Origin: a virus
Taxonomy: Duplodnaviria > Caudoviricetes
DNA length: 64,000 bases
Direction: 5' to 3' (one strand)
Virus record (IMG/VR): IMGVR_UViG_3300049491_000829
Location: 126 to 64,125 of that record
Part shown: piece by piece, positions 5,609 through 57,410 of the stretch
Layout of the letters: every line of letters starts with the position of its first letter
Position numbering within the stretch: the first letter of the stretch is position 1
Program-made: the position numbers and the translations under genes
Notes under the pieces: model-generated
Seen by the model: the letters and a program-made list of their open reading frames with translations, nothing else
Told to the model about the DNA's origin: nothing
Databases searched by the model: none

Positions 5609-6406
5609 ATGGATGCTGTTTTTTTGTTAGCGCAAAAGCATTGGCGAATACTTTCAGTTTTAATCCTTTGGTTAAACCTTGCATTTTTTCTACATTTAAT
5701 TGGTAAACGTCTGGAAAAAATCAACAGCGACAAGTTAATTCTATCTTGGTTGTCTGAGATTGGATCGGACATCAGGCTATACGGAATTGTCACGTCGTTA
5801 AGTTTGACTATCGCTTATGCTTCAAGCGTATACAGTAATTATCTTGCTTGGCTGTCCAGACTAAGTTCAGTGCTAGCAAAAGTCAGCGCATTATTTTGGC
5901 TCGTACTCGTCGCGATCGCATTCACTGAAACTGCTGCGCCGCATTTTTCAAGAATTATTACTCGCAGTCAGATGAATCAAATTGACAAACGGAACGCACT
6001 AACTCTCATTCCTTTATCTGCAAGTAGCGCAAAAGTAATAATTTATATTCTTGCTTTTATATTTGGATTGGGAGCATTCGGGGTTGATATATCCCCATTG
6101 CTGAATATGAGTACGGTCGCGATCGCAATATTTGGCTTTGCAGGTGCAGAAACTTTTAAAGATATATTAGCCTCGTTAAAAATTTTTATTGACAGACTTT
6201 ACTACGTCGGTTCAATTGTAGAAGTTAGTACAGATGGACTATGCAAATACGAGGGACAGTTAAAAGGCACAATTACTAAAATTACACTGTTTAATACAAC
6301 TATTCAATTAGAAAAGTCAGCAACTTTTAGTAAGTCGCTGACAGTAGCAAACGGTGCAATCCGAAGTATTATTGTATATCAAGAAAATATCAAGTCACGT
6401 GAATAG
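5609..6406 (+). CDS. MscS-family mechanosensitive channel-like membrane protein
   Basis: Several TMs, then FGVDISPLL...IFGFAGAETFKDILASLKIFIDRLYYVGSIVEV...GTITKITLFNTTI...VANG, the MscS TM3/beta-domain pattern. Confidence 0.75.
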   Translation: MDAVFLLAQKHWRILSVLILWLNLAFFLHLIGKRLEKINSDKLILSWLSEIGSDIRLYGIVTSLSLTIAYASSVYSNYLAWLSRLSSVLAKVSALFWLVLVAIAFTETAAPHFSRIITRSQMNQIDKRNALTLIPLSASSAKVIIYILAFIFGLGAFGVDISPLLNMSTVAIAIFGFAGAETFKDILASLKIFIDRLYYVGSIVEVSTDGLCKYEGQLKGTITKITLFNTTIQLEKSATFSKSLTVANGAIRSIIVYQENIKSRE

Positions 6407-7384
6407 CATGATGTGTTGCAAGACTGCGCGATACAAATTAACTGGTACTGCATTACCTAGCGCTGCACCATCTACTAAGTTTATTCCTGAGAATTGATAC
6501 CAATTAGGCAAAGTTTGCAACCCTGCAACATCCTGAATCGACAGCGATCGCGTTATGCCATTTACCCAAATATCTAAGAAATTTTGACGACTAGCACCTT
6601 TACCATCACTAAACATAGATTTGGTAATTGTAAAACACGGCTCAAATTGATGCCGAATTTTTATTGTGTCGTTACGCTTACCAATTCGTTGAATCAAAAA
6701 CGCTTGAGTTGTCGGATACATTTGCAATTCAACGTCAATATCTTTTTGCTGAGTCGCAGTCAGCTTAGATAGTTTCATTTGCGCTATGCGATCGCCTAAT
6801 ACGCTCCACCAGCCCAAACGAGGACGACGCGCAGGCAATCCCAACACTCGTCCCTCTCTGTCCGCAATTACGATCATTCTCTCTCTGTCCTGCGGTACAT
6901 CATAATCATGGGCGTTTGCGATGCCAAATGTCACCCCATAGCCCAGTTCAATCAAGGCAGTTTTAATCATTTCCCAAGACTGCGATCGCGCATAGCCTGG
7001 GACTTGCTCTAGCGTGAAAAACCTTGGACGCTTTAATTGCAAAAATCTGATTGTTGAATACGCCATTGCAAAGTCCCGTTCTAACTCCATCGCATCAGTT
7101 TTTGCAGCAGAATAATTTTGACAAGGCAGCGAGATATGCCCAATCATTGGCTCATTTTCAATAAATCTAAAATCCAATCTCGCCGCATCTTGAATACTGC
7201 CTCGAAATAAATTGCAGCCGTATTGCTTAAAGTTTTTATCGTGCAAGTCCGCGATCGCGCTACTCAACGCTGGATTTTCTGGATCGAACTCCACTGCATT
7301 TGTATAGTGCAATCCTTCTTCAATAAAGGCTGCACCAATTCCACCACCACCACTGCAAAAATCTATAACACTACTATTTTGCAT
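6395..7384 (-). CDS. C5-cytosine DNA methyltransferase with canonical motif X
   Basis: Motifs I DFCSGGGG, IV LPCQ, VI EQV, VIII QDRER, X LGNAVP. Confidence 0.88.
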   Translation of the reverse strand: MQNSSVIDFCSGGGGIGAAFIEEGLHYTNAVEFDPENPALSSAIADLHDKNFKQYGCNLFRGSIQDAARLDFRFIENEPMIGHISLPCQNYSAAKTDAMELERDFAMAYSTIRFLQLKRPRFFTLEQVPGYARSQSWEMIKTALIELGYGVTFGIANAHDYDVPQDRERMIVIADREGRVLGLPARRPRLGWWSVLGDRIAQMKLSKLTATQQKDIDVELQMYPTTQAFLIQRIGKRNDTIKIRHQFEPCFTITKSMFSDGKGASRQNFLDIWVNGITRSLSIQDVAGLQTLPNWYQFSGINLVDGAALGNAVPVNLYRAVLQHIMLFT

Positions 7385-10919: not shown

Positions 10920-10959
10920 TGTTTTGTAAATTTTTTACTTAGGGAAACTTTTCCCTAAG

Positions 10960-13208: not shown

Positions 13209-13251
13209 TTCCTCTCACTTTGACTTAGGGAAACTTTTCCCTAAGTGCTTT

Positions 13252-20664: not shown

Positions 20665-20753
20665 TTTAATTCCTCTCACTTAGGGAAACTTTTCCCTAAG
20701 TTACCACTAAATATAATATCTCTTATTATCTCAAATAGAATACTTCTCAGCCA

Positions 20754-22139: not shown

Positions 22140-23015
22140 ATGGCACGTTCCAAACTATCTTTCTCAGATGTTTCCAAGGTATTTAAAGCATTAAATTTAA
22201 AATTGATGCAAAGTACTAAAGGATATTCCGTAAACGTAAAAAAGAAAATTCACACTTTCCCGACTCTACAAGCAGCAACAGATTTTATTCTTGCTTATGA
22301 GCCTGGTACTAAGTCGTCAAAAATTATCGTTACTGAAATTGCCTGTATTCCTTGCGTAGCTTATGAAATGCAAGCTTTCCAAGCAATATTAGAAGCAATA
22401 TTAGAGGAGATTGGAGACTGGATTGAGACGACTGTTGCTGACGCGCCTGAGACAGCGAGAGTTTACACAACAGCGACAGAGAAGTATGACATTCCAGAGA
22501 TTACAGTTTCTAGTTACTGGATTAATTTAATGTCGGGTTCCAAACGCCAATGGAGAGTCATAGAATCGCTGGACGCAGAAAGACAAATAAAAGCTTGTAA
22601 AGACGCAAAGTACAGCGCTGTCAATGAAGATGAATGGCAGACCGTACAGATGTATCAACTTCCTTACGTTAAAGAATTAGACAAAGCAATTTCAAGAACA
22701 GCAGCAAAAATCAAAGCATTCAAAGAAAAGAAAAAAGCTGAAAAAATTTCTGAGGCAATTGGCAAAAATGGCAAACCTAAAGCAGTAAAGGAAAATGGCG
22801 AGTACAAGCCTGGGATGACAACGAAAGAAGTAACGCCAGGCTCAAAAATTGACAAAATTATTCAGATGCTTGGACAAGGCACAACAATGGAAGAATTAAG
22901 CTCTGCTATTGGCAAAGATATGACAGCATCCTACGTTGCTCAACGTCTTGCATTACGTGGCTATGGATTAAAAAAAGAAGTAGGCAGCGATCGCTACCTA
23001 CTTGTTAAGCCCTAA
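22140..23015 (+). CDS. Hypothetical protein with C-terminal winged-helix-like domain
   Basis: GSKIDKIIQML..GTTMEELSSAIG pattern. Confidence 0.6.
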   Translation: MARSKLSFSDVSKVFKALNLKLMQSTKGYSVNVKKKIHTFPTLQAATDFILAYEPGTKSSKIIVTEIACIPCVAYEMQAFQAILEAILEEIGDWIETTVADAPETARVYTTATEKYDIPEITVSSYWINLMSGSKRQWRVIESLDAERQIKACKDAKYSAVNEDEWQTVQMYQLPYVKELDKAISRTAAKIKAFKEKKKAEKISEAIGKNGKPKAVKENGEYKPGMTTKEVTPGSKIDKIIQMLGQGTTMEELSSAIGKDMTASYVAQRLALRGYGLKKEVGSDRYLLVKP

Positions 23016-23032: not shown

Positions 23033-23782
23033 TCATTTGATAGCAATCCACGCAGCAAATTGACCCCAACGCCAGATGCATTCACTTTGCACAAATCCTG
23101 TATATCTTAAACTTTCTTCATTTTGAAAAGCAGTCCAAGGCACTAGAACCCCTTCTAAGCTTAAGCGTTTGCGCTGTATCTCATATTCTGTGTAGCCATT
23201 TTCAAATTTTAAAGAATAATAAACCTTTGTCAAAATATCATCAATATCAGCCGTTTTTGCTAAAGTTTTCTCTACAAGGATAAAAGCGCCGCCACGATTC
23301 AAGCTTCGATAAATCCGGCGCAATAATTGCAAGCGATACTCCACAGGGATGAATTGCAGCGTCAGGACAGACATTACAACGCTATTCTGCCCTTGGGGAA
23401 AATCAACCCGCAAATCTAAATTATCAATGCTAACGCGATCGCGTACATCTTTGAATCGCTCCTGACATACTTTTATCATTGCGTCGCTACGATCTATCAT
23501 CTTATATCTAATATCGGGTTGCAATCGCGACAGCAATCTAGCGATTGTCTCACCCCTGCTACAACCTAAGTCTAAAATTGCACCCTTGTTTGTCGCAAAA
23601 TTAACAGCGAATTCTACGACAAGCGATCGCATCACATCATAATCAGGGATCGAACGCTGTAACATCTCTTCAAATACATCCGCTACTTGCTCGTTAAACT
23701 CCCAATTACTTGGCATCGCGATCGCTTCAGGAGTATTTTGCAGTTGGGGAAACGTTTCCCTAAGTGGATTCTCGTTTTGCAT
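23033..23782 (-). CDS. cmoA: Carboxy-S-adenosylmethionine synthase, CmoA-like
   Basis: WEFNEQVADVFEEMLQRSIPDY, LDLGCSRG, LTLQFI, ILVEK, GYTEYEIQRKRLSLEGV match CmoA, including the KR motif. Confidence 0.88.
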   Translation of the reverse strand: MQNENPLRETFPQLQNTPEAIAMPSNWEFNEQVADVFEEMLQRSIPDYDVMRSLVVEFAVNFATNKGAILDLGCSRGETIARLLSRLQPDIRYKMIDRSDAMIKVCQERFKDVRDRVSIDNLDLRVDFPQGQNSVVMSVLTLQFIPVEYRLQLLRRIYRSLNRGGAFILVEKTLAKTADIDDILTKVYYSLKFENGYTEYEIQRKRLSLEGVLVPWTAFQNEESLRYTGFVQSECIWRWGQFAAWIAIK

Positions 23783-24257
23783 GATTTAAAATTAGCTTTG
23801 GCTTAGGAACAATTGTTAGATAGCGATCGCTGATTACAGCAGTGACAGTTTGCTTTGATTTGAGCTTTGCACGAAAATAACCTTTGATAAATAAAGCAAA
23901 AGGCTTAACATTCTTTGTTTGCGAAACAATCTTTATAGTGACTTGGTTTCGCAACTTACTTTTAGCAACAAGTTCGCCAGCTATTAAAAATGTATTTACT
24001 TTAATACTAGGATGCGGACTGTCTGCGTCTGCAATAGTCCTGCAAACAAACAATGTTAGCTCTCCTGTCTGTGGATTTGTACGAGGATAGACTGTAAGTC
24101 TTAGTAGTTTTGTACTATCTACTTTTAAAAAGGCGCGTTTTGCAGATTGAACGAAAATAATAGGGATTGAATAAGTGTCAGTTATAGCAGCGTACCCAGT
24201 TTCAAAAGGAATAATGTTAGCAAGGATAACGCCTACAGCTTGAGAGTAAAATTCCAT
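23760..24257 (-). CDS. Hypothetical protein in the modification operon
   Basis: 165 aa, overlaps both neighbours. Confidence 0.6.
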   Translation of the reverse strand: MEFYSQAVGVILANIIPFETGYAAITDTYSIPIIFVQSAKRAFLKVDSTKLLRLTVYPRTNPQTGELTLFVCRTIADADSPHPSIKVNTFLIAGELVAKSKLRNQVTIKIVSQTKNVKPFALFIKGYFRAKLKSKQTVTAVISDRYLTIVPKPKLILNHAKREST

Positions 24258-25258
24258 TAGTTAGTTTGTTGTAACAGTCTTTTACACAAGCTACCAGCGA
24301 TCGCGGACATTGCCAACGGTGGGACAGCGCGTCCTAGACGTTCCCAATTCTCTGCATCTGTTCCACCTAGATAAAAATCGTCAGGGAAGGAACATATTTT
24401 TTTGAGTTCGGGAATTGTGAACTGCCTTGTTTCTCCTGTATCTGATTTAATCCAACCACCACCAGAAAAATATGCGGATTCAAAGCGACCGTAATCATGT
24501 GCCATTATTGTAGGAGAAGGGCGATCGCTCGATTTATAATTAAATGCAGAACCACTGTGTTTTACGTAGCGGATATGAGGTAATACGTCTTTCACGCTGT
24601 AAGTATAAGGAAGAGGACGCGGGAAAACAGGCTGTATCTTCAAATCCTTGCGGATACCCATGAAGAAAACACGATCGCGCATCTGCGGTACTCTCAAATA
24701 CTGACAATCAATCTTGCTACAAATAACACTGTATCCACAATCTTTCAAAGCTTGGACAATCTCAACAAAATAGCCTTTTGCTTTCCCTTTTACTAGACCT
24801 GCAACATTTTCAGCAATGAACCCCTTTGGCTGTAACTCTTTGAGTATTCGCGAGTATTCAAAAAATAAATCATCTGACTTTTGAGATTTTTTGCCTGAGT
24901 AATGTCTTTTTTTGCCCCAACCTTTATCACCTGAACCTGCGCTAGAGAAACTAGTACAAGGTGGAGAGCCATCTAAAATATCGATTTTGCCCACTGCTGC
25001 AACAATATCTTTTGCTGCAATATCTCGCACATCTCGCGTATCTAGTTTTGTTGTTGAATGATTTGCTTGGTAACATGCGATCGCTTCTTCAACAAATTCA
25101 GCAGCATACACAACTTCACATCCAGCCAATTTGTAACCCAAACTGCTACCACCGCAGCCTGAGAACAAAGAAGCTACTTTAATCCCATTTTTAGGAATTA
25201 ATGCAATTTCCGCCATGCTTGGCATATAGTAATCAGGTTTATCTTTTTTATAGTTCAT
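24257..25258 (-). CDS. C5-cytosine MTase homologue with motif X Asn>Arg, predicted DNA carboxymethyltransferase
   Basis: I SLFSGCGG, IV GSPPC, VI ENV, VIII QMRDR, X LGRAVPP. Confidence 0.9.
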   Translation of the reverse strand: MNYKKDKPDYYMPSMAEIALIPKNGIKVASLFSGCGGSSLGYKLAGCEVVYAAEFVEEAIACYQANHSTTKLDTRDVRDIAAKDIVAAVGKIDILDGSPPCTSFSSAGSGDKGWGKKRHYSGKKSQKSDDLFFEYSRILKELQPKGFIAENVAGLVKGKAKGYFVEIVQALKDCGYSVICSKIDCQYLRVPQMRDRVFFMGIRKDLKIQPVFPRPLPYTYSVKDVLPHIRYVKHSGSAFNYKSSDRPSPTIMAHDYGRFESAYFSGGGWIKSDTGETRQFTIPELKKICSFPDDFYLGGTDAENWERLGRAVPPLAMSAIAGSLCKRLLQQTN

Positions 25259-25580
25259 TGTTAAACCCCAGATAAGTCATCGCTTCAAAACCTTTTACAC
25301 GTTCGTTCGTAATAATAAATTGCTCTTCATATTCGTAGTATCCTTCTTCTAATTCAAATTCTGTCGGGTATCTAACCCAGACGTGCTTGATGTCTAAAGG
25401 GGAAAAAGGGACTGAGTTATCCTCTTCGTCCTCCTCCTCGCAATAGTCCGAATAATCCGCGATCGCGTAACGGAAAAACTTATCAATATCTACGTGTCCT
25501 TTTGCGTAATAACCCATCAGACTATTACAATCACATTCTCGGACTTCGCACATCTCAAATTCACGCTGCAAATTTACCAT
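25248..25580 (-). CDS. Acidic hypothetical protein
   Basis: 110 aa, Glu/Asp-rich. Confidence 0.55.
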   Translation of the reverse strand: MVNLQREFEMCEVRECDCNSLMGYYAKGHVDIDKFFRYAIADYSDYCEEEDEEDNSVPFSPLDIKHVWVRYPTEFELEEGYYEYEEQFIITNERVKGFEAMTYLGFNNEL

Positions 25581-25597: not shown

Positions 25598-26104
25598 TTA
25601 CTTCTTTGGAGTCGTAAATTGATATTTGCACTTGGGACAAGTCACATCAAGCTCAGACGCGATCGCATCCGGGTCAATTTCTGTGAAGTCTTGCGGGAAT
25701 TCTTCACTCATCAATGCATCAATCTCATCTTGAGAAAATCCAGTCAATTCTAAATCAGCTTCCAAATCAATCAAAGATTGAAGCTCAAATTTTAGCGCTT
25801 CATCATCCCAAGGCGATTGCGCTAACTTATTGTCAGAGATTCGCAATTGTGTTTTTTGCGCGTCCGATAATCCTGTACGGACAATTACAGCAACTTCTTC
25901 CAACTCAGCAACGATCGCAGCTTCTCTCCTGCAATGCCCTTTTAAAATGTTGTTGTTCTCATCAACAACAATCGGTACATCAAAACCAAGCGTTTTCATC
26001 ACTTCCGCTAACTTCTCAATCTGCTGTCTGCTATGGATTTTAGCGTTTTGCTCGTAAGGGATTAGAGCGTTTGGCGATCGCATCTCAATATTTAAATTAC
26101 TCAA
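25598..26104 (-). CDS. ParB/Srx N-terminal domain protein with C-terminal CxxC
   Basis: LIPYEQNAKIHS, GFDVPIVVD, GHCRREAA, RISDNK, CPKC. Confidence 0.85.
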   Translation of the reverse strand: MSNLNIEMRSPNALIPYEQNAKIHSRQQIEKLAEVMKTLGFDVPIVVDENNNILKGHCRREAAIVAELEEVAVIVRTGLSDAQKTQLRISDNKLAQSPWDDEALKFELQSLIDLEADLELTGFSQDEIDALMSEEFPQDFTEIDPDAIASELDVTCPKCKYQFTTPKK

Positions 26105-26105
26105 A

Positions 26106-26768
26106 TTACTCAGTCCTTGTTGGTAAACTGTAATATTTTGTATGATACCTTTTCTGCTCGATCCAAGCGTTGATTAAACCTTGTTGATGCATTTTTGAAC
26201 ATATCTTACGAATTGTTGTTTTATTTAACTTTGCTTCATTCGCTAATTCTTCAGTCGTCAAAGGTCTTTTGTACTCAGACAGCAAATTTAATATTATTTT
26301 TTCAGTTTCTAAACCAAATTTATCTATTAACTTTTCTTTTTCTCCCGCAAGACAATAATACAATTTTGAACCCCTGTCACGTCGATAACTCTCAATTTTA
26401 CCTGCTGCAATCAACGCATCACAATGAAATAAAGCTGTTTGGGGCGATCGCTCAATAGCAGGAGCAATATCATAAACACTCAAAGGTTCTTTAGCAAGTA
26501 ATCCTAATATTATTGCGCGATGTTTCTCGTTAACAAAAGGTCTAACAGCTTCGCGCTTTTGCTTGACTTTCCTGCGTTTAATCACTTCTGGCTTTTCACG
26601 CTGTTCCTGGACAAGCTTAGTTTTGTCAATGCCTCGACTAATGATTAAAAAATTTCCACAGGCAGAGCAAAAGTTATTACTTTCTTCCTCGCAAATACAG
26701 TAAATTTGGCGAAATTTTAAGCATCGACCGCAGTATTTAAAAATAGATTTTTCCCAAACAAGTTGCAT
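26106..26768 (-). CDS. Zinc ribbon plus tandem winged-helix DNA-binding protein
   Basis: CGRC...CSAC and two wHTH-like segments. Confidence 0.65.
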   Translation of the reverse strand: MQLVWEKSIFKYCGRCLKFRQIYCICEEESNNFCSACGNFLIISRGIDKTKLVQEQREKPEVIKRRKVKQKREAVRPFVNEKHRAIILGLLAKEPLSVYDIAPAIERSPQTALFHCDALIAAGKIESYRRDRGSKLYYCLAGEKEKLIDKFGLETEKIILNLLSEYKRPLTTEELANEAKLNKTTIRKICSKMHQQGLINAWIEQKRYHTKYYSLPTRTE

Positions 26769-26839
26769 TTTATTCTTCCCTTGAACTTGTCTTAATTTAA
26801 AAGCACTTAGGGAAACGTTTCTCTAAGTCCAAAAACAGT

Positions 26840-26887: not shown

Positions 26888-29377
26888 TTAAACAAGGGCG
26901 ATCGCTTGTTCTTTAGCTAGTGCTAATGTATCAATTCCTTCTTTAATAATTTCATTATCGATTGTGATTCTAAATTTGCCTCCTTTAATCTTAGTAAGTA
27001 TAATTTCTTTCTTTCTAAAGATTGACACTGCACCTGATTTAGTTGGTAGCCATTCGATTTCTTCTTCCTCTTCCTGTTCCTCTATTCCATCAATCGCCCA
27101 AACGGCTAAACGACAATCCCCATATTCATCAAATTTCTCGTAAAAATTGCGCCAGTTGTTGCCAATGTACAGCAACACTACGTCAAAGTTTGGATTGTCA
27201 AGATTATCATTGTTTTTCTTAAGCTCTTCGCGATATTTACGATGCTCAGGAGGACAGGAAAACGCGACACGTCCTGTCATGTCGCACGTTATTTCAAACA
27301 AACGTTTTGCGATCGCGCCTGAGCCTTTGTTTGACTTTAATCCTTGTTTTGCAAGGACTACACCCTCTTTGATGTTATTTTTACCAACTTGCTCTTCAAT
27401 CTTTTTGAGCCAAGCTTCCGGGTCCGAGTAAGGAATATTAGCAAAAAATGTGATAGGACGATTGTCATCTGGGATTTGCCAGTCTTGGGTTAAACCATTT
27501 AATTCTTCAGTTAATCCTGTGAAATGATGCTTTGCAGCTATGCGTTTACCAGGGTCAGCACAAGGATCAATGTCAATCTCTCCTAATACTTCGGCAATTG
27601 TTTCAACTAACCAATCAGGGGTGTACCATTGATCCGACATCAACGGTATATGCTTTTCTATATCTAGTCTTTGCTGTTCCGGATAAATAAGCGATCGCCC
27701 GGTTTGAATAGTCTCCGCGAGTGCGACTGTTTTGCCATCAACAGGCTGACTAAGTTGTTGAGTTTGTTGCTGAGTAGCTTGTTGTTGGGGAATACTTGCA
27801 GCTTTCCCAATTGCGCCTTGTTTAGATGGCGTACTTTGTTTCTCAGAAAATAATTTGCTTAATGCTTTTTCTACGCTTGTAGCTTCACCACGTAGAATCA
27901 AATCTGCAACTTGCATTGCAACTTTAGCGCCGTAGTTTGGATTTTGGTAAACTTCTTCGCGCAACTTGCGAACTGTCGCGACCATTTTGTCATTTTTATT
28001 AAATAGTTCGCGCAATTTAATCCGATTAGCGTCAGGAAGTGTGTCAATCCAATCAAGCAGCTTGCTAGCTTCATAAGCTGTTTTCCCAGAGAGTCCGGAA
28101 CCGCGTGCGGCTTCATCCCACGCTTTGCCAGATTGGGACGCATCTTTTTTTGACACTCTTGCTTGACGATCGCGAGCTAAAGTCGCGCAATATTGCTTAC
28201 GCGCAGCAATTTCCCGGATTTTCATCTCTTGATTGCGATCGCGTGTCTTGTCATTTGTATCAAGCAGCGCTTCCACTACTTCCGCTATCGAACCAAACGG
28301 ACGAACTTCAACAGGTATTGTAGAAATATTTTCAATTACAGCAGCTTGAGTACGTCTGTTCCCTGCAACTACTTCTAAATCGTAAACATTCTCATCATTT
28401 TTGACTAAGCCAACAAGAACTCGTTGCAGAATAACACCCCCGTTATTTTGAAGACTTTCTTGAATATTTGTAATATCCTCGCCATCTCGACCAGGGTGGT
28501 AAACTTCTCTATTAACATCCAGAAATGGCAACAAATGCGGCGGATAATCCCCAATAAATCCTGACTCTAGCTCTTTTGTGCGTGCATGATACTCGCGACA
28601 CACAGCGCTACGCACCGAATGAAAATATTGTCCGCGTTCTGTTGCGTACAGAATTTCAGTACCACCATCTTTCATTGTCGCTTCTTGTCCAGCTATTAAC
28701 AAAGCTGGTATTTCTTGCTCCAAAAAACCAACAAAGCCGCCTTGATAGAACTGATCGACGCGAACAATATAGCCTTTACGTGAATAACTAAAAATTGTCC
28801 GAAATTCTTCATCCTCGTCGCTTGCCTTCCATAAAGCTTCTCCTAACTCTGTTTTATCTTCTTCAATACTTTCTGCAACTTTTGCAGATTCACTACTTGT
28901 ATCAACAATCTCAGACATTTCATCATCCTTAATAACTTGAAATTCTTCTATAACTGACTCTAAACCATTTTCAATAATTGCAATTTTCCCAGGGAAAATC
29001 AGTCTTTCAACCGTAAAAATCCCTTTTTCTGTCTGGACGCGATCGCCCAATTCAACATTTAGTATGTTCAGTTTATCATCATATTGTAAATCCAACAGCT
29101 TAACAGCCTGCTCGTTGCCACTCTGACTACGGACTATAACAGACCCGTCGTTGGATATATCGACAATTCGGACAATTTCAGCATCGCCTTGTTTTGCTAC
29201 GCAAGCGCCAAACAAATCAAAACCCGCATCTGTCAAACGGAAGAAGTTAGCAAGGTTAGATTCACGCTTTTCTATGATTACCTGTTGTTTTGTGTGTACC
29301 TTTGAGCCTAGCTTCATATCCTTAAGTTTGTCGCGATCGCTCTCTAGTTCCCTTAACGCGCTTTTTAGTGTTTCCAT
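26888..29377 (-). CDS. Multidomain protein: ParB-like domain fused to a phage N6-adenine DNA methyltransferase
   Basis: VVAGNRRTQAA (ParB); SDQWYTP, IDPCA, FANIPYS (phage Dam-type). Confidence 0.8.
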   Translation of the reverse strand: METLKSALRELESDRDKLKDMKLGSKVHTKQQVIIEKRESNLANFFRLTDAGFDLFGACVAKQGDAEIVRIVDISNDGSVIVRSQSGNEQAVKLLDLQYDDKLNILNVELGDRVQTEKGIFTVERLIFPGKIAIIENGLESVIEEFQVIKDDEMSEIVDTSSESAKVAESIEEDKTELGEALWKASDEDEEFRTIFSYSRKGYIVRVDQFYQGGFVGFLEQEIPALLIAGQEATMKDGGTEILYATERGQYFHSVRSAVCREYHARTKELESGFIGDYPPHLLPFLDVNREVYHPGRDGEDITNIQESLQNNGGVILQRVLVGLVKNDENVYDLEVVAGNRRTQAAVIENISTIPVEVRPFGSIAEVVEALLDTNDKTRDRNQEMKIREIAARKQYCATLARDRQARVSKKDASQSGKAWDEAARGSGLSGKTAYEASKLLDWIDTLPDANRIKLRELFNKNDKMVATVRKLREEVYQNPNYGAKVAMQVADLILRGEATSVEKALSKLFSEKQSTPSKQGAIGKAASIPQQQATQQQTQQLSQPVDGKTVALAETIQTGRSLIYPEQQRLDIEKHIPLMSDQWYTPDWLVETIAEVLGEIDIDPCADPGKRIAAKHHFTGLTEELNGLTQDWQIPDDNRPITFFANIPYSDPEAWLKKIEEQVGKNNIKEGVVLAKQGLKSNKGSGAIAKRLFEITCDMTGRVAFSCPPEHRKYREELKKNNDNLDNPNFDVVLLYIGNNWRNFYEKFDEYGDCRLAVWAIDGIEEQEEEEEIEWLPTKSGAVSIFRKKEIILTKIKGGKFRITIDNEIIKEGIDTLALAKEQAIALV

Positions 29378-42865: not shown

Positions 42866-43636
42866 CTAAGGTGCTAATCTAGCTTTCCCGTAACGCTTTG
42901 CTTTGTACCACGCTGCAAGCTCTGGTGCAACCTTCTCGAATTCAGAAAACAACAAAGACGCGAGTATTTGGATTTCTCGCTCTGAGTCTGTTTTTGTTCT
43001 CTGATCGAGCAAATGCCATAAACCCTCTACAGTAGTAAAAATATCAAAAGGTTGCCTGTAACAAAATGGCAAAAACTCTCGTGCCATTTCAAAGGGCATG
43101 TTCAAAATCTCGATATCGTGCTTGTATTGCAAACAAGCATCGCGACACTGAGCGTATCTTCTCCTTTGCATTGCTTGCGTCCAATTACATTTTTTACCAG
43201 CGCGATCGCTGTATATCCCTTCAGGACGCACGTAAAAAGCTTTTGCAACTTCTAAATCACCGTTTGCAACATCAACAAACTTTTTCCCCGTGTATCGCAT
43301 CGAAGTAACTAGAAATGCGCTGTCACGATGTCTTGTCGCTTGCTGCATAACGCTGTGAGGGAAACCATAGCATTTAAAGCTGATGAAAGCTGCATTTAAA
43401 ACACTGAAATGTTCAACATTCAATTGATGTTTAACAATTGCGTCACCGCAGCTTTCATTGCTTAAACCCGCAGTATTTGGATCGAACTCATCGCTAAAAT
43501 ACGAATCGGGTTTGTCACAAACACAAGTATGCTGCCCCTTCCAAATAGCAGACTGAATCTGCGGGGATGTTCCATCAATATCCACAAATACCTTAAACTG
43601 CAAGTCGTTGTCTTCAAAATAGTCTGAGCCTGACAT
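42866..43636 (-). CDS. thyX: Flavin-dependent thymidylate synthase
   Basis: HFSVL, RHR-x7-S (RHRDSAFLVTS), SMRY, EMAREFLP, EREIQ. Confidence 0.92.
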   Translation of the reverse strand: MSGSDYFEDNDLQFKVFVDIDGTSPQIQSAIWKGQHTCVCDKPDSYFSDEFDPNTAGLSNESCGDAIVKHQLNVEHFSVLNAAFISFKCYGFPHSVMQQATRHRDSAFLVTSMRYTGKKFVDVANGDLEVAKAFYVRPEGIYSDRAGKKCNWTQAMQRRRYAQCRDACLQYKHDIEILNMPFEMAREFLPFCYRQPFDIFTTVEGLWHLLDQRTKTDSEREIQILASLLFSEFEKVAPELAAWYKAKRYGKARLAP

Positions 43637-46729: not shown

Positions 46730-47035
46730 ATGGAAAGCAAAAAAGAAGAAGTTATTAAGTTCTGGAAAAGCGGCAAAACCAGGCAAGAGATAAAGGAAAT
46801 GTTGGGTATCTCTCTAAAAACAATTTCAATTTATCTCAATAGCGATCGCGAGTACAGGCAAATTAAGGATAGAGAGAGAATTGCAAGGGAATGTTTGTAC
46901 GAGGAAATATTTGAGATTTGGCGATCGCAGTCGAAGAAAAATATTTCCAAAATAGCTCGCATATTTAATTTATCAAGGCAACGAACCCAGCAAATCTTAG
47001 GAAGATACAAGGAGTACAGAGATTATGGAGATTAA
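46730..47035 (+). CDS. Tandem HTH DNA-binding protein
   Basis: GKTRQEIKEMLGISLKTISIYL and NISKIARIFNLSRQRTQQIL. Confidence 0.75.
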   Translation: MESKKEEVIKFWKSGKTRQEIKEMLGISLKTISIYLNSDREYRQIKDRERIARECLYEEIFEIWRSQSKKNISKIARIFNLSRQRTQQILGRYKEYRDYGD

Positions 47036-47684
47036 CTTATTTCCTCAAACGCGAAGTCACGTAGAAATTTATCCAGGGTGCTGGCATCTAGTTGACTTGC
47101 TTAGTCCTAATTGCCAACAGTTTCTAGTCGAAAGCTGTAGGGTTTGGGGAAAAGGAAGAATGAAGACTTGGGAGACTTCACCTGGTAAGTTGATGAATCA
47201 TCCCTTTTTCTGTGTTGGGCACAATTGGAAGCCGTATGAGTATTACAAAGGAGATGTACAATTTCCTGGACAATTGCAGATGATGTGGAGCGCGTTGTTG
47301 AGGCAATGTCCCGACTTGGAAGTAAGAAAATACTTGATTGATGCACATAATCCCGATACTGCGATCGTTAATTGGTATCCACCTGATTCTTCGCTTGCAA
47401 TGCACGTCGATAAAAGCGAAGATTTGGAGTTACAACAGCAAGGTAGCCCAATTGTGACGATCGCTCTAGGGGCAAACGCAACAGTCAAAATAGGCGGATT
47501 TAACAAGTTGGAAAATGTAAAATCAAAATCAGTAATCATGCGATCGGGCGACGTTCTTCTAATGTATGGCGAATCTCGCACACGGTTGCACAGTGTCGCA
47601 AAAATTCACGAGAATAGCGAACCTGTTGATTTGCTGCAAACATCTGGCAGAATATCAGTAACAATGAGAAGGGCAAAACTATGA
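47025..47684 (+). CDS. alkB: AlkB-family 2OG-Fe(II) dioxygenase
   Basis: IVNWY...MHVD (HxD), GDVLLM.G.SR..LHSV, RISVTMR. Confidence 0.9.
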   Translation: MEINLFPQTRSHVEIYPGCWHLVDLLSPNCQQFLVESCRVWGKGRMKTWETSPGKLMNHPFFCVGHNWKPYEYYKGDVQFPGQLQMMWSALLRQCPDLEVRKYLIDAHNPDTAIVNWYPPDSSLAMHVDKSEDLELQQQGSPIVTIALGANATVKIGGFNKLENVKSKSVIMRSGDVLLMYGESRTRLHSVAKIHENSEPVDLLQTSGRISVTMRRAKL

Positions 47685-57363: not shown

Positions 57364-57410
57364 TTTTTTATTCCTACTTTAGGACTTAGGGAAACTTTTC
57401 CCTAAGTTGT

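Follow-up and report, generated by a model that had tools for sequence, protein, structure and literature searches.

The locus described here lies at positions 23,033 to 25,258 of a 64,000-nt stretch of viral DNA, which is the window of this analysis (positions 126 to 64,125 of the IMG/VR record IMGVR_UViG_3300049491_000829, which is linear and 64,125 bp long). This contig comes from a tailed cyanophage, with genes for the terminase large subunit (TerL), a portal-like protein, baseplate J and an M23 peptidase tail protein. A homologue of CmoA, the synthase of carboxy-S-adenosylmethionine (hereafter Cx-SAM), and a homologue of the cytosine-C5 DNA methyltransferases (C5-MTases), termed CmoX after its published relative, are encoded on the minus strand. 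The window very probably carries a member of the published CmoA–CmoX DNA-modification system (PMC12783734); the activities of the two enzymes, their product and the role of the modification are predicted from the homology, the diagnostic residues, the synteny and the absence of a ligase, which were observed directly. An earlier note on this DNA had placed a CmoA-like gene with a KR motif and a C5-MTase in one overlapping gene run, and the three open reading frames (ORFs) were found exactly so, all on the minus strand. The stop codon of cmoX and the ATG of a 165-aa ORF have one base in common (TAATG), and the 165-aa ORF overlaps the start of cmoA by 23 nt. The genes cmoX and cmoA are spaced 474 nt apart within the same gene run. 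The features of this core are as follows.

23033..23782, minus strand: cmoA homologue, predicted Cx-SAM synthase, 249 aa (TIGR00740, phrog_4752 and the CmoA/YecO structures in the PDB)
23165..23170, minus strand: codons of K205-R206, the KR of CmoA (opposite QKR in chain 4gek, the E. coli CmoA)
23760..24257, minus strand: 165-aa orphan ORF between cmoX and cmoA (codon score, independent contigs)
24257..25258, minus strand: cmoX homologue, predicted DNA cytosine C5-carboxymethyltransferase, 333 aa (sequence and fold match to 8yf3, PF00145)
24329..24331, minus strand: codon of Arg310 in motif X, LGRAVPP (aligned to R350 in the VGRMVPP of the published enzyme SpCmoX)
24956..24967, minus strand: codons of S98-P99-P100-C101, motif IV with the catalytic Cys (aligned to S95–C98 of SpCmoX)

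The published system was described for Synechococcus phage S-B43 (Nat Commun, 7 December 2025; PMC12783734), which bears out the suspicion in the earlier note that a natural cyanophage system of this type was on record. According to that study, SpCmoA makes Cx-SAM from S-adenosylmethionine (SAM) and prephenate, and SpCmoX takes Cx-SAM, not SAM, and forms 5-carboxymethyl-dC in GC motifs, a modification that blocks HhaI. R350 of SpCmoX contacts the carboxymethyl group and stands in for N304 of M.HhaI, and the R350N variant was inactive. F25, F48, E47 and D69 were named as the contacts with the adenine and ribose of Cx-SAM, and C98 was named as the nucleophile. The Arg mirrors the engineered N374K of M.MpeI (PMC12783734, Discussion). 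Furthermore, CmoY, an Asn-synthetase-like ligase, adds glycine to 5-carboxymethylcytosine (5cxmC), and only the glycine adduct was found in native phage DNA; further ligase clusters with unknown amine substrates were noted (PMC12783734). The census in the same paper comprised 5,615 candidate CmoX proteins (SPPC plus R350) from IMG/VR v4, UniProtKB and MGnify, with 4,257 CmoA proteins, 2,251 ligases and 1,660 ParBc proteins on the census contigs, and an association of CmoX with ParB was reported too (PMC12783734). No other paper on a natural CmoX was found among the literature matches listed from 2024 onward.

The window CmoX matched PF00145 (Pfam) at E=4.9e-55. Its best sequence match in the PDB was SpCmoX (8yf3, E=1.4e-55), and the next was M.HaeIII (1.2e-25). 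The structural model had a predicted local distance difference test (pLDDT) value of 90, and C5-MTase structures were its top fold matches; 8yf3 ranked first (E=2.4e-27, template-modelling score 0.76), and the value for an ordinary C5-MTase was 2.1e-22. The C5-MTase motifs F32-G34-G36, C101, E150-N151-V152 and R194/R196 were kept. In motif X, the LGRAVPP with the Arg codon at 24329–24331 was read as the earlier note had given it, and this residue, R310, stood opposite R350 in SpCmoX and opposite the Asn in the GNAVP of M.HaeIII. Moreover, F32, E54, F55, D76 and C101 paired with F25, E47, F48, D69 and C98 of SpCmoX, respectively. These five residues and R310 were invariant in 120 of the 120 relatives listed, and SPPC, ENV and the motif-X Arg were likewise present in all of them; the 120 aligned relatives were the top matches, not a random sample, and 4,326 sequences at E≤1e-40 were counted among the 8,000 candidates scored. 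The combination by which CmoX proteins were searched in the published census (SPPC plus an Arg at the R350 position) was found in the window enzyme. The equivalence of R310 and N374 of M.MpeI rests on the pairing of R310 with R350 together with the statements on HhaI N304 and N374K in PMC12783734. The second C5-MTase of the window (6395–7384) served as an internal control; it has ISLPC, EQV and the canonical LGNAVP that had been ascribed to it.

The CmoA homologue matched TIGR00740 over model positions 7–239 of 239 (E=9.6e-49), phrog_4752 (E=3.4e-73) and the CmoA/YecO structures 1im8 and 4gek in the PDB (E of about 1e-32). K205-R206 was aligned to the QKR of E. coli CmoA (K198-R199). In the E. 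coli enzyme, the Arg of KR holds the carboxylate of Cx-SAM. Among 24 CmoX-linked CmoA proteins, K205 was invariant and R206 was at least 90% conserved. SpCmoA, which is active, and the homologue of Moraxella phage Mcat8 align Lys-Glu at the KR site (L007:3395-4090 and L008:6052-6702). Either phage Cx-SAM synthases do not all bear KR, or the alignment shifts at this site. As had been stated earlier, CmoB and tRNA genes were missing: TIGR00452 (CmoB) gave 0 matches in the record, and no tRNA gene was found in the window.

The record was searched for an amide ligase of the CmoY type. PF00733 gave no six-frame match at E≤1, and a hidden Markov model built from 48 CmoX-linked ligases gave none at E≤10 in 639 six-frame segments. 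The best value of tblastn with three reference ligases was E=0.2. No CmoY-type ligase, whether of the Asn-synthetase type or AMP-forming, was found in the 64-kb record, and 5cxmC is therefore the predicted end product. In S-B43, TurkishDelight and PaBG, the ligase is next to or within two genes of cmoX/cmoA. The order in Streptomyces phage TurkishDelight is ParB, ParB, CmoX, a glutamine-amidotransferase/Asn-synthase-type protein and CmoA, and that in Pseudomonas phage PaBG is ParB, CmoX, CmoA, a hypothetical protein and Asn synthase.

The surroundings of CmoX were compared at 160 loci (80 viral and 80 genomic), which were fetched with an alignment of 28 CmoX relatives. The retrieval pattern includes the Arg; all 160 loci are thus Arg-type, and the counts refer to Arg-type loci. 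Within the flanks, a CmoA homologue was found at 145 loci, a ParB homologue at 123 and a ligase at 50. The co-occurrence of GRAV-type MTases with cmoA, which the earlier note had put forward as a check, was hence observed in this Arg-type set. CmoX and CmoA were directly adjacent at 87 loci; the interval between them held a ligase at 42 loci, another ORF at 12 and a short spacer at 4, and the remaining 15 had no CmoA within the flanks. Plain adjacency with no ligase in the locus accounted for 84 of the 160.

The four nearest relatives were found on plasmid2 of Scytonema sp. NIES-4073 (AP018265.1), in Brasilonema sp. UFV-L1, in a Scytonema metagenome-assembled genome (MAG) and in an IMG/VR provirus record. 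Their identity to the window proteins was 64–65% for CmoX and 55–56% for CmoA. The window and these relatives share the order ParB-Dam, a gene of about 230 aa, ParB, CmoX and CmoA, which is followed by homologues of a 291-aa protein and a DUF932 protein in the opposite orientation; TerL is near. The relatives have an empty ParB–CmoX interval and a direct overlap of CmoX and CmoA, whereas the window adds a 110-aa and a 165-aa orphan ORF. No ligase was found in the flanks of the four. In the three Nostocales genomes that hold nearest relatives, the sole strong CmoA match (E of about 1e-50) adjoins CmoX, the next best match being 4e-11, and no CmoB was found at the cut-off (best 44 bits against 275). 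The presence of a Cx-SAM synthase gene on the element itself would be accounted for in this way.

Compared with S-B43, the window has the same linkage of CmoA to a C5-MTase homologue with SPPC and the carboxylate-binding Arg (R350, corresponding to R310 in the window), unchanged contacts with adenine and ribose, a lack of CmoB, a nearby ParBc protein and a cyanobacterial host. The two differ in gene order, which is CmoX followed by CmoA in the window and CmoA-CmoY-CmoX in S-B43. They also differ in the predicted end product, which is 5cxmC for the window record, where CmoY is absent, and 5-glycylcarboxymethylcytosine for S-B43. In addition, the target-recognition region of the window enzyme is shorter and cannot be aligned. 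S-B43 belongs to the Kyanoviridae and is a myovirus of marine Synechococcus with 214 kb of DNA, whereas the window phage is smaller and has its relatives in Nostocales. The engineered M.MpeI N374K resembles the window enzyme in that a basic residue in place of the motif-X Asn lets a C5-MTase use Cx-SAM; the former is engineered, has a Lys and is CG-specific, whereas the latter is natural and has an Arg. With the E. coli CmoA/CmoB pathway to uridine 5-oxyacetic acid (cmo5U) in tRNA, the window shares the CmoA fold with KR and, as a prediction, the cofactor chemistry. The acceptor enzyme is a DNA C5-MTase homologue here instead of CmoB, and neither CmoB nor a tRNA gene accompanies it.

These comparisons suggest the following course of the reaction. 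CmoA would convert SAM and host prephenate to Cx-SAM. CmoX would take Cx-SAM as its donor, with Arg310, which replaces the motif-X Asn, placed to bind the carboxylate. Cys101 would attack a flipped-out cytosine at C6, and transfer of the carboxymethyl group to C5 would yield 5cxmC on the phage DNA. The presumed benefit of 5cxmC is that host restriction would be blocked. The mechanism proposed in the earlier note, in which phage-made Cx-SAM and an Arg-type C5-MTase give 5cxmC, matches the published one, and the window enzyme is a relative of SpCmoX with the diagnostic residues.

Several observations weigh against this assignment. The identity of CmoX to SpCmoX is modest (34% by tblastn and 40% by MAFFT). 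No alignment to SpCmoX was obtained for residues of about 208–265 of CmoX, which form the target-recognition part between motifs VIII and IX and face mostly gaps; the GC specificity is therefore not transferable. The CmoA homologue is 29% identical to SpCmoA, and its TIGR00740 score of 166.2 bits is below the curated equivalog cut-off of 193.3; the CmoX-linked CmoA proteins of the relatives are also under this cut-off (171–178 bits). The score against NF011995 was 119 bits, with a cut-off of 285. The KR is weak evidence either way, with active SpCmoA aligning KE there. Furthermore, the record is about 65% complete (CheckV), so that a ligase could sit in the missing third.

It is unlikely that 5cxmC is an intermediate which is derivatised by a gene not of the Asn-synthetase type; the candidates would be the two orphans of 165 and 110 aa and any gene in the part of the genome that the record lacks. 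The position of the 165-aa ORF speaks for such a step, as the TurkishDelight ligase is located exactly between CmoX and CmoA and a ligase occupies that slot at 42 of the 145 loci with CmoA; the ORF also scores as coding and is joined to the CmoX stop by the shared base, and the published ligase clusters with unknown amine substrates (PMC12783734) would leave room for further chemistry. However, the 165-aa orphan has neither relatives nor similarity to any ligase, its length is far below that of the ligases (267–466 aa), and its ESM Atlas model shows a beta-rich fold for which no nucleotide-binding family was named. Moreover, the four nearest relatives, in which CmoX overlaps CmoA, and the 84 loci with plain adjacency do without a ligase in their flanks or loci. 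Unmodified 5cxmC is accordingly favoured as the predicted end product in the window phage.

That CmoX is an ordinary methylase forming 5-methylcytosine is highly improbable. CmoA would then serve the cmo5U of host tRNA, a Cx-SAM natural product (as for TglE or MccS) or the depletion of SAM against SAM-dependent defences. CmoA homologues do serve non-DNA pathways, as described in PMC10491745, but the record has no CmoB, the related host genomes have none at the cut-off, no tRNA gene is present, and a natural-product biosynthesis family was matched by 0 of the 39 window ORFs scanned (Pfam). The depletion of SAM was raised as a possible side effect in the study of the published system (PMC12783734). 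The natural bacterial MTase M.MedI was reported to use both cofactors, whereas wild-type SpCmoX took only Cx-SAM and not SAM (PMC12783734), and the window enzyme has the Arg and all named contacts. The linkage of CmoX and CmoA at 145 of 160 loci also argues against unrelated functions of the two enzymes. The carboxymethylation of cytosine by the CmoA–CmoX pair is the reading retained here.

The 165-aa ORF was evaluated as a gene in its own right. The chance of an open frame of 165 codons is about 4e-5 at the base composition of the window. Its codon score was 0.28–0.31 nats per codon, within the range of 0.18–0.33 for the long genes of the window, and both shifted frames were negative; the test is imperfect, with one of six antisense control ORFs scoring 0.23. 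Contigs from an independent study span both junctions of the ORF with 0 differences and are identical to the window. Among the public runs, no RNA run with the sequence was listed. The ORF is by these signs a real gene, a lineage-specific moron-like insert. A word-index search of 5.8 billion clustered proteins and an exhaustive phmmer search of 1.84 billion representatives each recovered nothing but the ORF itself. It had no Pfam (also at E≤10), NCBIfam, PHROG or PDB sequence match, no BLASTP similarity to PaBG_00179, PaBG_00181, TurkishDelight gp124 or SpCmoY, no paralogue in the window and no match among the ORFs of the 160 related loci, and it was absent from the four nearest relatives. A decayed ligase was considered as its origin and rejected, with no similarity in any frame. 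The ESM Atlas model (predicted template-modelling score 0.79) is beta-rich and resembles cyanobacterial hypothetical proteins with PF30545 or PF30514 and also clusters like the oligonucleotide/oligosaccharide-binding (OB) fold, which is a lead only. The single-sequence AlphaFold2 model was unusable (pLDDT 35), and the predicted complex of CmoX, CmoA and the 165-aa ORF scored 0.00, which is uninformative both ways.

The slot between CmoX and CmoA is permissive, because a gene or a spacer separates the two at 58 of the 145 loci that include CmoA. The 165-aa and 110-aa ORFs are most likely outside the modification chemistry, and any role of the former in the modification is quite unlikely. One specific form of such a role, very unlikely in itself, is that of an accessory factor of carboxymethylation, either an OB-like DNA-binding partner that sets the sites of CmoX or a processor or reader of 5cxmC. 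This possibility was considered because the slot of the ORF is filled by the CmoY ligase in other phages, and because the ORF start has a base in common with the CmoX stop. If true, it would represent a variant pathway beyond the published CmoA/X/Y scheme. The earlier note had suggested that the intervening ORF may be new; the novelty stands in the sense of a real, lineage-specific orphan gene, and nothing ties the ORF functionally to the modification. For the 110-aa ORF, only itself was found in the protein collection, and it is likewise absent from the four nearest relatives; a weak, sub-threshold match to PF25696, a beta-clamp-binding phage family, was obtained (E=0.0012).

The minus-strand run has the order winged-helix gene, ParB, 110-aa ORF, CmoX, 165-aa ORF and CmoA, with a strong terminator at its end. 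A ParB_N-Dam fusion is separated from the winged-helix gene by a short gap. The neighbouring features are as follows.

22978..23003, minus strand: intrinsic terminator after cmoA (11-bp stem and U-run; -21.8 kcal/mol, z -3.3)
23747..23760, no strand: copy of a palindromic boundary element at the junction of the 165-aa ORF and cmoA (element search)
25248..25580, minus strand: 110-aa acidic orphan ORF in the parB/cmoX interval, overlapping the start of cmoX by 11 nt (no relative but itself)
25598..26104, minus strand: small ParB_N (ParBc) protein, 168 aa (phrog_620, E=9.3e-46; PF02195, E=9.3e-05, below the cut-off)
26106..26768, minus strand: DNA-binding protein of the winged-helix type (ArsR/MarR-like), at the head of the run (PF01022, E=1.2e-09)
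26810..26823, no strand: copy of the palindromic boundary element upstream of the winged-helix gene (element search)
26888..29377, minus strand: fusion of ParB_N and a Dam-type N6-adenine DNA methyltransferase, 829 aa, upstream neighbour (PF05869, E=1.1e-10; PF02195, E=1.5e-05; syntenic homologue in the relatives)

The palindromic element has the core G[G/A]GAAA-NN-TTTC[C/T]C and is near-perfect, with an extended form of about ACTTAG..CTAAGT. The window holds 26 copies at two or fewer mismatches, against 0.13 expected, for example at 10942–10955, 13228–13241, 20683–20696, 23747–23760, 26810–26823 and 57389–57402. Although 81% of the window is taken up by the listed genes, 21 copies fall in intergenic DNA, and each of the other 5 is no more than 13 nt from the end of a gene. 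In the related loci L089 and L090, a copy is found at the site that corresponds to 26810. RNA hairpins were rejected as an explanation, since two folded copies were not more stable than shuffled sequences (z -0.3 and -0.1). The element could be a stoperator-type operator or a recombination boundary.

Three DNA-modifying transferases are encoded by the phage, namely the Asn-type C5-MTase (6395–7384, minus strand), CmoX (24257–25258, minus strand) and the ParB-Dam N6-adenine MTase fusion (26888–29377, minus strand). Scytonema plasmid2 encodes a C5-MTase with 40% identity to the Asn-type enzyme. About 20 kb from the cmoX-cmoA operon, the window has genes for a ThyX-type thymidylate synthase (42866–43636, minus strand) and for an AlkB-like 2-oxoglutarate/Fe(II) oxygenase (47025–47684, plus strand).

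Scytonema plasmid2 is a circle of 76.6 kb. Its genes include parA, two of the integrase family, those for a tail sheath and a portal, and one for a TerL that is 59% identical to that of the window. A match on plasmid2 was found for 19 of the 77 window ORFs of at least 100 aa. The plasmid is a phage-like replicon and a distant relative of the window phage; its make-up resembles that of a phage-plasmid or of a plasmid that has captured a prophage. A Tn3 transposase and a nonribosomal peptide synthetase are also encoded on it (AP018265.1; L193 and L194). TerL is intact in the window and on plasmid2. In three of the four nearest relatives (L170-L176, genomes G002-G004), the TerL homologue was found in two pieces (query 38–176 and 176–507) that are 1.2 to 6 kb apart, which points to an intron, to an intein-free insertion or to a split gene. 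Longer CmoX relatives (matches of about 1.3 kb) were also found at many loci of single Verrucomicrobiota MAGs, at least 6 in one (L099, L100, L103, L123, L126 and L129) and 5 in another (L127, L134, L137, L140 and L145). These loci suggest multi-copy elements that carry the system in bacterial chromosomes.

The host was examined through the HIP1 sequence (GCGATCGC), which occurs at 180 sites in the window against about 1 expected and is spread evenly. The host is therefore a HIP1-rich cyanobacterium. The density was 2.8 per kb in the window and 0.47 per kb on Scytonema plasmid2; the host of the window phage is probably a cyanobacterium much richer in HIP1 than Scytonema NIES-4073, and probably a filamentous one. 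Of the temperate, HIP1-rich host setting that the earlier note had envisaged, the HIP1 richness was thus borne out. The temperate part was not: no integrase was found among the 39 window ORFs scanned with Pfam, and the one related feature was a protein like a recombination directionality factor. A temperate lifestyle is hinted at only by the relatives, one of which is on a circular Scytonema plasmid with parA and integrases and another in a provirus record of IMG/VR.

The chemistry, the structure and the 5,615-member census of the system are already in print, and the only unexplained extra of the window is the 165-aa orphan between the two enzymes. The discovery value of the locus is little, as the published census drew on IMG/VR, the database from which the window comes. 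The compact, ligase-free CmoX-CmoA pair is nevertheless a candidate for showing unadorned 5cxmC as a natural end product. The differing target-recognition region of CmoX could give another sequence specificity, which may be useful in a tool enzyme. In the GenBank entry of plasmid2, the two genes are labelled 'cytosine-specific methyltransferase' and 'putative methyltransferase' only. The occurrence of Nostocales relatives on a circular plasmid with parA suggests that the CmoA–CmoX system also travels on phage-plasmid-like replicons, there under a generic methyltransferase annotation.

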